From sequence record OK272484.1: a stretch of 64,000 bases of DNA. One strand, written 5' to 3'. The translations under genes were made by a program, and so were the position numbers. Position 1 is the stretch's first letter. Each line of letters begins with the position of its first letter. The notes under the pieces are model-generated. The model saw nothing but the letters and a program-made list of their open reading frames with translations, was not told the origin of the DNA and did no database searches. Shown here in pieces: positions 1 through 61,554 of the stretch. This DNA comes from Escherichia phage JLBYU22.

Positions 1-1176
1 TACGGTAAAGACCCAATCGCTTCCGATGCTAAAGAAGCATTCCACCCAATGTATGGTCCAGATGCAATGTTCTCTGGTCAGGGTGCTGCTAAGAAATTCC
101 CAGCTCTGGCTGCTAGCACACAAACTACAGTAGGTGATATCTATACTCACTTCTTCCAGGAAACTGGTACTGTATATCTGCAAGCTTCTGTTCAAGTAAC
201 AATCGATGCTGGCGCGACTGATGCTGCTAAATTAGATGCTGAAATTAAGAAACAAATGGAAGCTGGTGCACTGGTAGAAATCGCTGAAGGTATGGCTACT
301 TCTATCGCTGAACTCCAGGAAGGTTTCAATGGTTCTACCGATAACCCATGGAATGAAATGGGCTTCCGTATCGATAAACAAGTTATCGAAGCTAAATCTC
401 GTCAGCTGAAAGCTGCTTACTCTATCGAATTAGCACAAGACCTCCGTGCTGTTCACGGTATGGATGCTGATGCTGAACTGTCTGGCATTCTGGCTACAGA
501 AATTATGCTGGAAATCAACCGTGAAGTTGTTGATTGGATTAACTACTCAGCTCAGGTTGGTAAATCTGGTATGACCCTGACTCCGGGTTCTAAAGCTGGT
601 GTATTTGACTTCCAGGACCCAATCGATATTCGTGGTGCTCGCTGGGCGGGTGAATCCTTTAAAGCTCTGTTGTTCCAGATTGACAAAGAAGCAGTTGAAA
701 TTGCTCGTCAGACCGGTCGTGGTGAAGGTAACTTCATTATCGCTTCCCGTAACGTAGTTAACGTTCTGGCTTCAGTTGATACTGGCATTTCTTATGCTGC
801 GCAAGGTCTGGCTACCGGCTTTAACACTGATGCTACCAAGTCAGTATTTGCTGGTGTTCTGGGTGGTAAATACCGTGTATATATCGACCAGTATGCTAAA
901 CAGGATTATTTCACTGTAGGTTATAAAGGTCCGAACGAAATGGATGCTGGTATTTACTACGCTCCATATGTAGCTCTAACTCCGCTGCGTGGTTCCGATC
1001 CGAAGAACTTCCAACCAGTAATGGGATTCAAAACTCGTTACGGTATCGGTATCAACCCATTTGCAGAATCCGCTGCTCAGGCTCCGGCTTCTCGCATCCA
1101 GAGCGGTATGCCTTCTATTCTGAATAGCCTTGGTAAAAACGCTTACTTCCGCCGTGTATATGTTAAAGGTATCTAA
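1..1176 (+). CDS. 23: Major capsid protein gp23, C-terminal portion (gene starts upstream of window)
   Basis: Frame is open from base 1 into ORF 49..1176; T4-type gp23 sequence; followed by hairpin terminator. Confidence 0.9.
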   Translation, partial: YGKDPIASDAKEAFHPMYGPDAMFSGQGAAKKFPALAASTQTTVGDIYTHFFQETGTVYLQASVQVTIDAGATDAAKLDAEIKKQMEAGALVEIAEGMATSIAELQEGFNGSTDNPWNEMGFRIDKQVIEAKSRQLKAAYSIELAQDLRAVHGMDADAELSGILATEIMLEINREVVDWINYSAQVGKSGMTLTPGSKAGVFDFQDPIDIRGARWAGESFKALLFQIDKEAVEIARQTGRGEGNFIIASRNVVNVLASVDTGISYAAQGLATGFNTDATKSVFAGVLGGKYRVYIDQYAKQDYFTVGYKGPNEMDAGIYYAPYVALTPLRGSDPKNFQPVMGFKTRYGIGINPFAESAAQAPASRIQSGMPSILNSLGKNAYFRRVYVKGI

Positions 1177-1259: not shown

Positions 1260-2543
1260 ATGGCTAAAATCAACGAACTTCTGCGCGAATCAACCACAAC
1301 GAATAGCAACTCAATCGGTCGCCCAAATCTCGTTGCTTTGACTCGCGCTACCACTAAATTAATATATTCTGACATTGTAGCAACGCAAAGAACTAATCAA
1401 CCTGTTGCTGCTTTTTATGGTATCAAATACCTTAACCCTGATAACGAATTTACATTTAAAACTGGTGCTACTTACGCCGGCGAAGCTGGATACGTAGACC
1501 GAGAACAAATCACAGAATTAACAGAAGAGTCTAAATTAACTCTCAATAAAGGCGATTTATTCAAATATAATAATATCGTTTATAAAGTATTAGAAAATAC
1601 ACCATTTGCTGATATTGAAGAAAGTGATTTAGAATTAGCTCTTCAGATTGCAATTGTTCTTTTAAAGGTTCGTCTATTTTCTGATGCTGCAGTAACAAGC
1701 AAATTTGAAAGCTCTGATAGTGAAATTGCGGATGCTAGATTCCAGATTAATAAATGGCAAACCGCAGTTAAATCTCGTAAACTTAAAACTGGCATTACAG
1801 TTGAATTAGCACAAGATTTAGAAGCAAATGGATTCGATGCTCCTAATTTCTTGGAAGATTTGCTTGCAACCGAAATGGCAGATGAAATCAATAAAGATAT
1901 TCTGCAGTCTTTGATTACAGTATCAAAACGCTATAAAGTCACAGGAATTACTGATACTGGATTCATTGATTTGAGTTATGCATCTGCACCTGAAGCTGGT
2001 CGTTCATTATACCGAATGGTGTGTGAAATGGTTTCGCATATCCAAAAAGAATCAACTTATACTGCAACGTTCTGTGTTGCTTCAGCTCGTGCCGCTGCGA
2101 TTCTTGCTGCATCAGGTTGGTTAAAACATAAACCAGAAGATGACAAATATCTTTCACAAAATGCCTACGGGTTCTTAGCTAATGGTTTACCGCTTTATTG
2201 CGATACCAACAGCCCATTAGATTATGTAATCGTTGGCGTAGTAGAAAATATCGGTGAAAAAGAAATTGTTGGATCAATTTTCTATGCTCCATATACAGAA
2301 GGTCTTGACTTAGATGACCCTGAACATGTAGGTGCATTTAAAGTTGTAGTTGATCCAGAAAGTTTGCAGCCATCTATCGGTTTATTGGTTAGATATGCTT
2401 TATCTGCAAATCCTTATACTGTAGCAAAAGATGAAAAAGAAGCAAGAATAATTGATGGTGGAGACATGGATAAAATGGCGGGTCGTTCAGATTTGTCTGT
2501 TTTATTAGGTGTTAAGCTACCAAAAATTATCGTTGATGAATAA
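1260..2543 (+). CDS. 24: Head vertex protein gp24
   Basis: 427 aa, same length as T4 gp24; position after gene 23. Confidence 0.92.
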   Translation: MAKINELLRESTTTNSNSIGRPNLVALTRATTKLIYSDIVATQRTNQPVAAFYGIKYLNPDNEFTFKTGATYAGEAGYVDREQITELTEESKLTLNKGDLFKYNNIVYKVLENTPFADIEESDLELALQIAIVLLKVRLFSDAAVTSKFESSDSEIADARFQINKWQTAVKSRKLKTGITVELAQDLEANGFDAPNFLEDLLATEMADEINKDILQSLITVSKRYKVTGITDTGFIDLSYASAPEAGRSLYRMVCEMVSHIQKESTYTATFCVASARAAAILAASGWLKHKPEDDKYLSQNAYGFLANGLPLYCDTNSPLDYVIVGVVENIGEKEIVGSIFYAPYTEGLDLDDPEHVGAFKVVVDPESLQPSIGLLVRYALSANPYTVAKDEKEARIIDGGDMDKMAGRSDLSVLLGVKLPKIIVDE

Positions 2544-2549
2544 AACAAA

Positions 2550-2565
2550 GGGACCGAAAGGTCCC
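2550..2565. terminator. Bidirectional hairpin terminator between convergent genes 24 and rnlB
   Basis: GGGACC-GAAA-GGTCCC hairpin flanked by A/T-rich tracts on both sides. Confidence 0.65.
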
Positions 2566-2571
2566 TTTTAT

Positions 2572-3576
2572 TTAACTTACCAATTCAATCCAAGCCGGAC
2601 GAAGTACATCTTGTACCATTTTAACTAATTCCTTCTTAATCAAGGAAGGATTATCCGCTTGAGTTAAAGTAATACCTTCACGAGAAGTTTCTTCCAAAAT
2701 ATCTTGAACAGTTAGTCCCATCACCTTTCCAAAATCTTTTGGACCAATTTCGCCAATTTTAGAAATAACGTTATTTACCCGATTCAGTGTAACGTAGCAA
2801 GCTAAAATTCCCAGCAATTTGTTATCAGCTTCTGACAGTTCAACTTTAACTTTAATAGGCTTATCAGACTTTTTCTTTTCGCTAAATTTAGAGTTCTTGC
2901 ATTTGATAGCTACGCGATTACCATTAGGCATCCAAGAAGGATAACAAGGTTTCAATACATATCCTTCAGCAGTAAATACTTCGCCTTTTGCTTCAGCATT
3001 CCAAACGCATTTATTTGCATCAACTAATCCAGCGTGGTCTACCGTAAAATTATAATCCTGGACGACAGAATCTAAATCATTTGGCAATTTAATAAGTTCT
3101 TCAAATTTACCACGACCCAAAAGTGGAGCCATTTTAAATTTGAATGTATTACAGAATGATTCCATCATATAATCATCGACATAAGTCACATCACCACTTT
3201 CTGTAGTAACAATAATGTCAAATACATAAAAATCTTTATCACCATAATCGACATTCTTCTGAATGCCAGGTCCAGCGAATTCGCCGAAGACTTGATAAGA
3301 TACAACTGCCGAAGTTTCCATAATATCTTGTACTGCTTTAATGGAATCAGCGTAATTCTTTAGAATAATTTCATACCCAAAGAAATCTTCAGCAGGAAGA
3401 ATCGGTCCAGTACGTTTAGCACAAGTTGCTTTATCGCGTTCAATAATCAGTGAGAAATTTGTGCCATGAATCTTTTCACGAGCTACCCATTCGCCGCCAG
3501 TCAATCCTAAACTGTAAAGTTTTTCAATGAATTTAGAATTGTAATGATTTTCAAGACTGCTATACTTTTTAAACAT
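2572..3576 (-). CDS. rnlB: RNA ligase 2
   Basis: 334 aa; nucleotidyltransferase lysine motif KIHGTN near N-terminus; T4 position. Confidence 0.9.

Positions 3577-29253: not shown

Positions 29254-29254
<1 letters not shown>
29057..29254 (-). CDS. Hypothetical protein (position of cd.5)
   Basis: 65-aa ORF. Confidence 0.5.
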
Positions 29255-30457
<1,203 letters not shown>

Positions 30458-30461
<4 letters not shown>

Positions 30462-31838: not shown

Positions 31839-33480
<1,642 letters not shown>

Positions 33481-58199: not shown

Positions 58200-58349
58200 T
58201 TACTGCATGACTGTGATAACTGTCATGATAACACGTTGAATTCCGAACGCAAGAAGACCTCCTGCTACGGCTGGAACAACACCTAAACCCGCCAGTAAAA
58301 TGCTACCGGATACTAATGCAGCGCTTGTAATACCTATAAATGGACTCAT
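58200..58349 (-). CDS. Small hydrophobic membrane peptide (49 aa), coupled to gene 52
   Basis: MSPFIGITSAALVSGSILLAGLGVVPAVAGGLLAFGIQ...; ATG overlaps gene 52 stop; not in ORF track. Confidence 0.5.
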   Translation of the reverse strand: MSPFIGITSAALVSGSILLAGLGVVPAVAGGLLAFGIQRVIMTVITVMQ

Positions 58350-59674
58350 TTGATTTCCTCTAAATCTTTAGTGTATTCGGTAACTACATCAGTAGTTTTC
58401 CAATATTCGTTTTCTTCTTTCTTAGCTTTAGCTTCTTCAGCAAGTTTCTTTGCTTCGTCGGAAGTCATATGAAAAATATTCATACCAACTAGTTTATCAA
58501 CATAAGAAGAATACATATCAATTTTAGAAAGTTCTTCTGTCAGTTCTTTACGAGTTTTACCTTGTACAACAATTTCACCTGAAATTACTTTCTTAATGAA
58601 ATGTGCCTTGGCAAAGGCTAAACGAAATGCTGATTCAGTTTCTTTGATTTTGTTATCAATTCGTTTCTGGACATAAGTTTTACGAACTTCAACGAAGTCT
58701 TTGATTAAATCAACTACGTTATCGTAAACTTGCAGCTTTCCTTTCTCATTAATAACGGTAATATTCTGGGAACGACGCTCAATCAACCCGAAGTCTTTCA
58801 TAATTTTCGCGTGACGTTCTTCTTCGTTATCGCTCAAAGAATATTCTTTACGGAATTTAACTTTGAAGCCAAAACCATGCTCACCGCAAGCATCATCCCA
58901 CGTAATGAATCCTTTATCTTCAAGCGGGTCTAAGATTTTACTCACATAAGTTTCACGATCATACTTATACGGAATCTCAGTGATATTCATTTGAGTTCGT
59001 GAAGTAAACTTGTACGTTCCACGAATTTCATATTGACCGTCAATTTCAACGACTTCACCGCGAAATTCTGGGAATTCTACCTTAGGTTTAGTTACTTTCT
59101 TTCCTTGAAGAGCTTGCAGTACAGCTTTCTTGACAGAAGAAACGCTATGAGGAAGAATGTAAGTTGCATAACCAGTTGCAATACCGGAAACACCATTAAG
59201 AAGAACAGTAGGAATAATAGGCAAATAGAAAGCAGGCGGAATGTGTTCTTTATCTTGATGTACCGGAGCATATTCAGTATCTTTATATACGTTATAGAAA
59301 TTTTTACTTACACGAGCAAAAATATAACGACTTGCCGCTGCTTTTTGGACAGTACGAGAACCAAAGTTTCCTTGACCATCTAACAAAGGAAAGTTATTAT
59401 TCCAAGTGTTAGCCATCAAAGCACCTGCGTCTTGTGCAGAGTTTTCACCATGATGATATCCAAGGTCTGCTACACCACCTGCAATAGAAGCGAGTTTGTG
59501 AAACTTATCTTTATTTCCTCGTGCCAAATCAAGAGCTCGAGCAATAACAAATCGTTGAACTGGCTTAAATCCATCAATCATATTTGGAATGGCACGATTT
59601 TCAACCGTGTACATAGCATAAGCCAATGCTTCATTATCAATGATACTTTTTAAATCGCGATTATTCAGTTGCAT
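58346..59674 (-). CDS. 52: DNA topoisomerase II medium subunit gp52
   Basis: 442 aa, same as T4 gp52. Confidence 0.93.
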   Translation of the reverse strand: MQLNNRDLKSIIDNEALAYAMYTVENRAIPNMIDGFKPVQRFVIARALDLARGNKDKFHKLASIAGGVADLGYHHGENSAQDAGALMANTWNNNFPLLDGQGNFGSRTVQKAAASRYIFARVSKNFYNVYKDTEYAPVHQDKEHIPPAFYLPIIPTVLLNGVSGIATGYATYILPHSVSSVKKAVLQALQGKKVTKPKVEFPEFRGEVVEIDGQYEIRGTYKFTSRTQMNITEIPYKYDRETYVSKILDPLEDKGFITWDDACGEHGFGFKVKFRKEYSLSDNEEERHAKIMKDFGLIERRSQNITVINEKGKLQVYDNVVDLIKDFVEVRKTYVQKRIDNKIKETESAFRLAFAKAHFIKKVISGEIVVQGKTRKELTEELSKIDMYSSYVDKLVGMNIFHMTSDEAKKLAEEAKAKKEENEYWKTTDVVTEYTKDLEEIK

Positions 59675-59678
59675 AAAT

Positions 59679-59819
59679 TTACCATACTAGTGAATGTAGT
59701 GCCATAATAACATCAGAAATGAAAAGCACGACTTGAATTAATCCGAACATTACTCCATAATATAGTGCTACCAATAAAGTAGCAAGGGCTAGTGAATAGC
59801 CCAAGATTTTCTTAATCAT
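59679..59819 (-). CDS. Small hydrophobic membrane peptide (46 aa)
   Basis: MIKKILGYSLALATLLVALYYGVMFGLIQVVLFISDVIMALHSLVW; not in ORF track. Confidence 0.45.
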   Translation of the reverse strand: MIKKILGYSLALATLLVALYYGVMFGLIQVVLFISDVIMALHSLVW

Positions 59820-59970
59820 TAGTAGATAACAACACAAATGTTAAATATGCACACATACCCTGGGCTAAAGCTTGTGAAAACACACTGCTAGCATCGATAC
59901 AGATAGTTAAAACACATGCTACTATCCAACAAATAAATGAAATAACTCCTAATAATTTTGCGATATTCAT
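59812..59970 (-). CDS. ac: Ac-like small membrane protein (52 aa)
   Basis: MNIAKLLGVISFICWIVACVLTICIDASSVFSQALAQGM...; size and position of T4 ac. Confidence 0.55.
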   Translation of the reverse strand: MNIAKLLGVISFICWIVACVLTICIDASSVFSQALAQGMCAYLTFVLLSTND

Positions 59971-59980
59971 AATATTCTCC

Positions 59981-60136
59981 TCAACTATTTTTAGAACCAA
60001 TGTACGCGAATAATGATAAAATCGCTAATACGCCCTGAGCTGATGCTTGCAAAAATACTGAAGTTTCTCCAGTTATTACTGTTCCGATGCATAAAAAGAA
60101 CCAACAGAAAAAGGCTATACCGTGAACAAATTTCAT
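59981..60136 (-). CDS. Ac-like small membrane protein paralogue (51 aa)
   Basis: MKFVHGIAFFCWFFLCIGTVITGETSVFLQASAQGVLAIL...; shares FxCW...C...SVF.QA.AQG pattern with the neighbouring Ac-like ORF. Confidence 0.5.
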   Translation of the reverse strand: MKFVHGIAFFCWFFLCIGTVITGETSVFLQASAQGVLAILSLFAYIGSKNS

Positions 60137-60143
60137 ATTTTCC

Positions 60144-60224
60144 TCACTGGCGTCCGAAGACGCCTTTGGTTTTAAGATTGTTACGATAGAACTGCATCAC
60201 GTGTTCGTTGTGGAAATTACTCAT
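60144..60224 (-). CDS. stp: Stp peptide (26 aa), host-defence modulator associated with PrrC anticodon nuclease
   Basis: Translation [26 protein letters not shown] matches T4 Stp as recalled; ATG overlaps ndd stop. Confidence 0.8.
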
Positions 60225-60682
60225 TAATATGCCTGCAAAACGAATTTAAAGTTATCAGCCAACATACGGTTCATTTCTTCAAGTGTTTGATACTCAGAAT
60301 GATGATTACGAGTAAACGCCAAAGCTAACTGACCTTTACCAAATCCTGTCGTCAGAGGTTTCATCTTAGAAGCAGGTAAATAAAATACTGTGTATGGAAC
60401 ATTGTTATTTGCAATAGTACGTGCAAGCTGAGACCGACGTTGACGAATATGACTTAGAACTGCACTGAATCCTTGCTTAGAACGCTGATTACCTACATAA
60501 AATCGTGCTGACACACATGGATTACTAAATAGACGACCATCTAATTTACTTACTAAAAAGTAAAATCCAGGTTTAGATAAAATATCTTTATGCGGAGTTC
60601 CCAAAAACCACTCGCCACCCTTGATTGTACCAATAACAGTAGCGCCTGCGTTGTTCAGATCAGTAACAGTCATGTATTTCAT
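60224..60682 (-). CDS. ndd: Nucleoid disruption protein Ndd
   Basis: 152 aa from MKYMTVTDL; T4 Ndd about 151 aa; track ORF over-extended. Confidence 0.8.
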
Positions 60683-60740
60683 ATTAATTTCCTCTAAATT
60701 ATTTTCTACTCCAAGGCCGCATGAATACGCGGCCATTAAA

Positions 60741-60956
60741 TTAATCGTCGCAGTCGACGCTCAATTCCCAAAACTCTTCTACTGTATAAGTTTCAGTATC
60801 ATTTTCAATACAGAAACGTTCATTACTGTTATTTGCTAAAGTAGCATTAACTGTCATTTTCTCGCTGGTGCTCTTAAGAGGCGAAATACGAATTAACTGA
60901 TCACCATTATCTAAACAGAAAATTTCACCAACTTTTACATCTTTAAAAATTTTCAT
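60741..60956 (-). CDS. Hypothetical protein (position of ndd.1)
   Basis: 71-aa ORF. Confidence 0.5.
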
Positions 60957-60964
60957 AATTCACC

Positions 60965-61072
60965 TCAAGGAGTATAAAATCCAAATGCAGTTGTTGACCA
61001 TCCCATCCAATATGGGAAATTTGCGCCAATGTAAAACATGAGAATATAAAACCAAATGCTTAGTAAATTCAT
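60965..61072 (-). CDS. Small hydrophobic peptide (35 aa)
   Basis: MNLLSIWFYILMFYIGANFPYWMGWSTTAFGFYTP; coupled to upstream ORF. Confidence 0.35.
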   Translation of the reverse strand: MNLLSIWFYILMFYIGANFPYWMGWSTTAFGFYTP

Positions 61073-61269
61073 TATTTTACACCATTCCAAATTGTTTCAA
61101 CTACAGATTTTAAGCCATTTTGATGAATGTCCATTCCGACAACTGCCATCAAATAGATTCCAACTACAACTGAACCTAAGGCAAAAATCAGCATGAAAAT
61201 GAATAAAGCCGGAAAAATATTATCGAAAAACCATTCAATAAATGTAAAAGCACTACGTTTACGCTTCAT
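61072..61269 (-). CDS. Small membrane protein (65 aa from MKRKRSAF)
   Basis: Hydrophobic helix IFPALFIFMLIFALGSVVVGIYLMAVVG; GAGG Shine-Dalgarno before ATG at 61269. Confidence 0.5.
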   Translation of the reverse strand: MKRKRSAFTFIEWFFDNIFPALFIFMLIFALGSVVVGIYLMAVVGMDIHQNGLKSVVETIWNGVK

Positions 61270-61276
61270 ATTTTCC

Positions 61277-61390
61277 TCACATAAATCCAAAGTAAGCGTT
61301 TAATACATCAATCATTAAAACGATTGGGAATATACTCAAAACTATTAGTATTATAACTACATTCCATATAGCTTTAACAATCTTTTTCAT
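61277..61390 (-). CDS. Small membrane peptide (37 aa)
   Basis: MKKIVKAIWNVVIILIVLSIFPIVLMIDVL...; GGAGG Shine-Dalgarno; early promoter directly upstream. Confidence 0.5.
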   Translation of the reverse strand: MKKIVKAIWNVVIILIVLSIFPIVLMIDVLNAYFGFM

Positions 61391-61410
61391 TTTCTGTTCC
61401 TCCGTAGTTG

Positions 61411-61455
61411 ATAGGGTAATAATACCACAGAGGAACAGTCTTGTAAACAACTTTT
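61411..61455 (-). promoter_or_regulatory. Early promoter cassette (family 2)
   Basis: GTTTAC -35, 18-nt spacer, TATTAT -10, leader ...CTATCAACTACGG. Confidence 0.5.
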
Positions 61456-61554
61456 TTAAAAATATTCGTAATAAATGTGAATACCAACTACTACTGCTGA
61501 AACTTGCGCAACCCACCATGCACAAGCAATAAGTACAGAATTCAAAATTTTCAT
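61456..61554 (-). CDS. Small hydrophobic peptide (32 aa)
   Basis: MKILNSVLIACAWWVAQVSAVVVGIHIYYEYF; not in ORF track. Confidence 0.35.
   Translation of the reverse strand: MKILNSVLIACAWWVAQVSAVVVGIHIYYEYF

Follow-up and report, generated by a model that had tools for sequence, protein, structure and literature searches.

Does a reading frame of only 26 codons, at 60144..60224 of a 64,000-nucleotide stretch of phage DNA (the window), encode the Stp peptide of phage T4, and does it form, together with the polynucleotide kinase/phosphatase and RNA ligase 1 genes of the same window, a complete counter-defence set against the host anticodon nuclease PrrC? This is what the original prediction, made without database searches, had proposed. 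We examined the identity of the reading frame, the signals around it, an RNA hairpin lying within it, its relatives in other phages, and the integrity of the two repair genes.

Identity and genomic setting of the 26-codon gene

The 2.5 kb surrounding the reading frame (59000..61500) matched 746 records of a phage collection by megablast, the closest being Shigella phage A2 (99.0% identity over 100% of the query); a further 485 phage records fell in the 95-99% identity band, nearly all of them T4-like phages of Escherichia or Shigella. Judged by this similarity, the window belongs to the genome of a Tequatrovirus (T4-like phage). The reverse complement of 60144..60224 translates into a 26-residue peptide followed by a stop codon that lies within these coordinates. 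The predicted peptide and the position given for it thus proved correct, with the addition that the gene, for which no strand had been named, is on the minus strand. On the plus strand, 60144..60224 contains no such reading frame and no start or stop context.

Because 54 open reading frames of at least 20 amino acids overlap the 4 kb around stp, a frame of 26 codons is not significant by itself, and it is homology, as read from the sequence, that makes stp a real gene. Alignment with authentic T4 Stp (NP_049878.1) gave 100% protein identity with zero mismatches, and the two genes differ in 2 of 81 nucleotides, both changes being synonymous (His5 CAC/CAT and Thr19 ACC/ACT). The Pfam profile PF08133, for which the curated cut-off is 25 bits, matched the peptide with 75.3 bits (E = 2e-21) along positions 1-26 of 26, so that both the length expected of this anticodon nuclease activator family (about 25-30 residues) and a full-length profile match were found. 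The PHROG profile phrog_6763 also matched (E = 4.4e-21); this family, and the T4 protein NP_049878.1, carry the label "activator of host PrrC lysyl-tRNA endonuclease" (PHROGs; T4 record). Residues 1-18 are identical in the window and in phages T4, T2, TOPO13 and K1ind2. The exact identity with T4 Stp, the purely synonymous divergence and the strong profile matches led us to reject a chance origin of the frame.

A second candidate in this region, a 58-aa plus-strand frame at 60013..60189, was rejected as antisense to conserved genes and lacking support.

The neighbourhood is syntenic with that of T4, with gp52, 52.1, ac, stp and ndd followed by ndd.1 and onward genes, all on the minus strand. 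By this synteny gp52 occupies 58346..59674, and ac, the acridine resistance gene encoding a small membrane protein, occupies 59812..59970 (phrog_2501, E = 3.7e-25). Directly downstream of stp lies a paralogue of ac, a 51-aa membrane-protein gene at 59981..60136 (phrog_2501, E = 4.9e-26), and directly upstream lies ndd, the nucleoid disruption gene (60224..60682), placed by the list of reading frames and by the annotated syntenic genes of T4, A2 and FriedrichZschokke. In T4, stp is located at 165505..165585 (NC_000866), between ndd and ac; by synteny, the gene of the window has the same T-even position, directly following ndd and preceding ac on the strand that is transcribed early.

The translation initiation region of stp, read directly from the sequence, spans 60222..60236 on the minus strand (GCAGGCATATTAATG). 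A Shine-Dalgarno-like AGG (60232..60234) precedes the ATG by 7 nt; this core is only 3 nt long, as it is in T4. The ATG shares one base with the stop codon of ndd (TAATG, with the A at 60224), an overlap that suggests translational coupling of stp to ndd. T4, T2, RB68, TOPO13 and FriedrichZschokke share the AGG core, its 7-nt spacing and the TAATG overlap. T4 stp has been defined by genetics and gives an active product (PMC3014915). The window carries the same ribosome binding arrangement from which Stp is expressed in T4, so that a usable site, the possible lack of which was raised at the outset, is probably present.

With regard to transcription, Stp, Pnk and Rnl1 are delayed-early products in T4 (reviewed in PMC3014915). 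A scan for sigma-70-like promoters upstream of stp found 18 sites as compared with 15.2 expected in shuffled sequence, which is not above chance, and no site was designated as a promoter. Since promoter-like sites are no commoner than in the shuffles, we infer from T4 synteny that stp would be transcribed in the phage of the window as it is in T4.

A hairpin within stp and the variable C-terminus of Stp

Codons 20-25 of stp contain a GGCGUC-UUCG-GACGCC hairpin (60149..60164, minus strand) that appears in both the minimum free energy and the centroid structures. It has a perfect 6-bp stem and precedes, by 6 nt, the GAGG from which the following gene would be translated; a terminator scan picked it up on the plus strand, where it is followed by a T-run and resembles a terminator. 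This raises the question of whether the true conserved feature of the locus might be the C(UUCG)G hairpin, stabilising the mRNA or terminating transcription between ndd and ac, with the 26 codons a chance or decayed frame. Such a reading could draw on the abundance of short frames in this region and on the perfect stem, which is retained in Gaprivervirus relatives, but the pattern of conservation runs the other way: it is strongest over the first 18 codons, which do not include the hairpin, and the differences from T4 are solely synonymous. The hairpin is kept in T4, in RB68, in VR7 (with a UUUG loop) and in TH22 (with one G-U wobble), and is weakened in FriedrichZschokke by the substitution R25S. 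It is absent from T2, TOPO13, Rtp and K1ind2; Rtp and K1ind2 nevertheless carry the KGVFGK peptide, and T2 and TOPO13 keep residues 1-18. Across all 151 nt of the region the folding is no stronger than that of shuffled sequences (z = -0.57), with the local hairpin alone standing out, and the profile matches of the peptide are highly significant. We therefore rejected an RNA element in place of the stp gene, the region folding like its shuffles and the hairpin not being its most conserved part; given the conservation pattern this alternative is effectively refuted, and we assign it next to no probability. The reading of 60144..60224 as a protein-coding stp gene is the one we carry forward.

A tblastn search with the 26-residue peptide found 817 phage records, of which 422 matched at 99% identity or above and 611 covered at least 80% of the query. 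In diverged relatives residues 1-18 are nearly unchanged and the C-terminus is variable, as stated in the literature. This division corresponds to what is known of the T4 peptide: its activity, both in inhibiting EcoprrI and in activating the nuclease, resides in the N-terminal 18 residues, suppressor mutations cluster at residues 4-14, and deletion of the last 8 codons reduces activity only moderately (PMC3014915).

Several individual relatives were also observed. Rtp (Drexlerviridae) has an annotated Stp homologue of 30 aa, located about 450 bp downstream of a gene for a 179-aa polynucleotide kinase (1444..2524 of the extracted region), and K1ind2 (Kagunavirus) has an unannotated homologue that is 92% identical (2501..2575 of the extracted region). 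Many T1-like phages of Escherichia, Salmonella and Citrobacter have weaker matches, which are confined to the first 18-19 residues. FriedrichZschokke encodes a natural variant with the substitutions H5Y and R25S (2645..2725 of the extracted region), the first of which falls within the segment of residues 4-14 where the loss-of-function suppressor mutations of T4 cluster.

The gene is easily overlooked. Shigella phage A2, the nearest GenBank relative of the window, has no stp CDS annotated (2638..2724 of the extracted region), and in many of the 60 listed tblastn matches, out of 817, only the neighbouring ndd, or no feature at all, was found under the Stp match. The 26-codon gene is often missed by automated annotation and by many gene callers; in the list of reading frames supplied for the original prediction, the frame likewise fell below the 60-aa cut-off.

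The ac paralogue downstream of stp bears on the variation of the Stp C-terminus. The 51-aa product of 59981..60136 is 43% identical to Ac over 40 aa, and both match phrog_2501. The paralogue is absent from T4 and present in A2, FriedrichZschokke and RB68. The single ac gene of T4 has an upstream region and ribosome binding site that match those of the paralogue, and a coding sequence that matches ac; either T4 collapsed a tandem ac pair or the present lineage duplicated ac. The C-termini of the T2-type peptides read NFGILGFKK and NFGILGSKNS (T2 and TOPO13). The DNA encoding them (positions 401..530 of the extracted T2 and TOPO13 regions, compared with 59950..60230 of the window) matches the 3' end of the ac paralogue together with the spacer that precedes ac, and the match is exact in TOPO13 (GGTTCTAAAAATAGTTGAGGAGAATATTATGAATATCGC) and nearly exact in T2. 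This pattern indicates an in-frame deletion in T2 and TOPO13 that joined stp, near codon 18, to the final codons of the ac paralogue, in keeping with reports that the C-terminus of Stp is dispensable.

PseT, Rnl1 and the predicted response to PrrC

The two repair genes were found at the coordinates originally given for them, both on the minus strand and both matching their T4 counterparts over the full length. The gene pseT (29254..30159) encodes a 301-aa polynucleotide 5'-kinase/3'-phosphatase (Pnkp) that matches T4 Pnkp (PDB 1LTQ) with E = 1e-201 and is 95.7% identical to T4 PseT, with 13 substitutions. It has the two-domain architecture of T4-type Pnkp, an N-terminal P-loop kinase and a C-terminal HAD (DxDxT) phosphatase domain (Pfam PF25109 and PF13671), with the P-loop GCPGSGKST and the phosphatase motif DVDGTL intact. 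The gene rnlA (gene 63; 31893..33017) encodes a 374-aa RNA ligase 1 (Rnl1) that matches T4 Rnl1 (PDB 2C5U) with E = 7e-252 and is 98.1% identical to it, with 7 substitutions. It combines a nucleotidyltransferase domain carrying the motif I lysine (K99) with the Rnl1-specific C-terminal domain, as T4-type ligases do (Pfam PF09511 and PF20819), and its EGYVA and HFKIK motifs are intact.

We also inspected individual residues that work on T4 Pnkp and Rnl1 has marked as catalytic; their presence in the window was computed. PseT has K15, S16, D35, R38, R126, D165, D167, R176, R213, D254 and D278, and Rnl1 has K99 (in KEDGS), E159, E227, K240 and K242.

The order of genes in this cluster, rnlA / alc / pseT.3 / pseT.2 / pseT.1 ... 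pseT, is that of T4. Between pseT.1 and pseT the window has an additional 100-aa reading frame (30159..30461, minus strand) that overlaps each of its neighbours by 4 nt and is absent at the corresponding position of T4. It matches phrog_2364, a family of unknown function (E = 2.9e-53), and had no match in a Pfam search.

The pathway in which T4 Stp takes part has been worked out in some detail. The T4 peptide (Penner et al. 1995, J Mol Biol 249:857, as cited in PMC3014915) is an inhibitor of restriction enzymes of type IC, namely EcoprrI and EcoR124I, and not of type IA (PMC3014915). In prr+ cells PrrC is kept latent through its association with EcoprrI, and the combination of Stp, GTP hydrolysis, dTTP and unmodified DNA unmasks it; once unmasked, it cleaves tRNA-Lys 5' of the wobble base (PMC3014915). 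Pnkp and Rnl1 heal and seal the cut tRNA-Lys (PMC3014915, PMC12707154, PMC12409349). On prr+ hosts, loss-of-function mutations in stp rescue mutants of pseT (pnk) or rnlA (rli) (PMC3014915). The succession of EcoprrI inhibition by Stp, unmasking of PrrC and tRNA repair by the two enzymes that had been put forward for the window agrees with these three reviews.

Because the peptide of the window is identical to the T4 peptide on which this work was done, the same behaviour is expected of it. Stp of the phage of the window would bind restriction enzymes of type IC, such as EcoprrI and EcoR124I, and inhibit them; in prr-carrying hosts, inhibition of EcoprrI would unmask the latent PrrC anticodon nuclease, PrrC would cut tRNA-Lys 5' of the wobble base, and the intact Pnkp and Rnl1 of the same genome would repair it. 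Expression of stp, inhibition of EcoprrI and activation of PrrC in this phage are thus projected from the T4 literature, as is the repair step; that PseT and Rnl1 of the window would repair PrrC-cleaved tRNA-Lys in vivo we infer because of their 96-98% identity to the T4 enzymes and the genetics of T4. Taken as a whole, we put the probability at roughly 96% that the window is a T4-like segment in which 60144..60224 is stp, acting as T4 Stp does, with intact Pnkp and Rnl1 alongside.

The description of the three genes as a counter-defence set holds for two of them. PseT and Rnl1 do counter PrrC, and that part of the proposal stands; Stp counteracts restriction and sets off PrrC, and has no part in the repair. 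It does not belong to the counter-measure, because it triggers PrrC and because stp mutations rescue pseT and rnlA mutants on prr+ hosts. The three genes are a functional trio and not one operon or genetic module, since stp is some 27-31 kb away from the other two, in a separate cluster, and both pseT and rnlA have further roles.

A more radical reading has stp, pseT and rnlA present without there being any dedicated PrrC module, and their joint action on PrrC incidental to their retention. Each gene would then be kept for its own purpose: stp to counter restriction by type IC enzymes or to act on another target, pseT for the general healing of RNA ends (for example after cleavage by RegB, Pnk being known to act also on RegB-cleaved mRNAs; PMC3014915), and rnlA for the attachment of tail fibres. 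Several observations are in keeping with this: some 27-31 kb separate stp from rnlA and pseT, and the gene clusters are different; the T4 annotation describes rnlA as "RNA ligase and tail fiber protein attachment catalyst"; Stp inhibits EcoR124I as well, which has no anticodon nuclease (PMC3014915); and Stp homologues occur in the small siphoviruses Rtp and K1ind2, where no RNA ligase 1 was found within the 5 kb inspected. T4 genetics, on the other hand, ties the trio together directly, as pnk and rli mutants escape prr restriction when stp is mutated as well (PMC3014915). We regard incidental co-retention as unlikely, and it would alter the evolutionary framing only, not the identity or the action of the genes; the functional trio of a PrrC trigger and two repair enzymes is the reading we prefer.

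A more speculative proposal is that EcoprrI and EcoR124I are not the only targets of Stp in this lineage, others being, for example, further sensors linked to type I systems or decoy systems such as Ronin-like HsdMS-toxin modules, and that variation of its C-terminus, between the form carrying the UUCG hairpin and the T2-type fusion, might adjust the choice of host systems that Stp inhibits or triggers. We consider this improbable, well below incidental co-retention; if it were true, natural Stp variants would be a probe of the signalling from type I complexes to the abortive effectors linked to them.

Comparison with known systems

What the window contains of Stp, Pnkp and Rnl1, and of their link to PrrC, is already known T4 biology in a close relative of T4. 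Identifying stp here therefore has practical value for annotation and little for discovery. It predicts that the phage of the window triggers PrrC in prr+ hosts and that in such hosts it depends on pseT and rnlA. The window adds nothing on how Stp binds EcoprrI, a binding mode given as unknown in a 2025 review (PMC12707154); among the matches listed for the literature since 2022, titles and abstracts revealed no structural work on Stp with EcoprrI or PrrC.

As compared with T4, the stp locus has the same 26 residues, the same position between ndd and ac, the same TAATG overlap and AGG site, and the same UUCG hairpin at its 3' end, and differs in the two synonymous nucleotide changes and the extra ac paralogue downstream. 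The repair enzymes share with T4 Pnkp (1LTQ) and Rnl1 (2C5U) their lengths of 301 and 374 aa, their catalytic motifs and their gene order; their 13 and 7 substitutions spare all the catalytic residues that were checked, and the pseT region differs from that of T4 by the 100-aa frame (30159..30461) added between pseT.1 and pseT.

Outside the T4-like phages, the same logic is seen where T7 Ocr meets PARIS or Ronin, abortive-infection systems that serve as a backup and sense anti-restriction proteins: in these cases, too, an anti-restriction factor triggers a second line of defence that targets tRNA or is lethal (PMC12409349; bioRxiv 10.1101/2023.04.06.535777). Ocr is an unrelated protein and a DNA mimic, whereas Stp is a peptide of 26 residues (PMC12707154). 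The answer of the phage differs as well, T4-type phages responding by enzymatic repair of the cleaved tRNA, unlike the decoy tRNA that figures in the comparison with Ocr, PARIS and Ronin.
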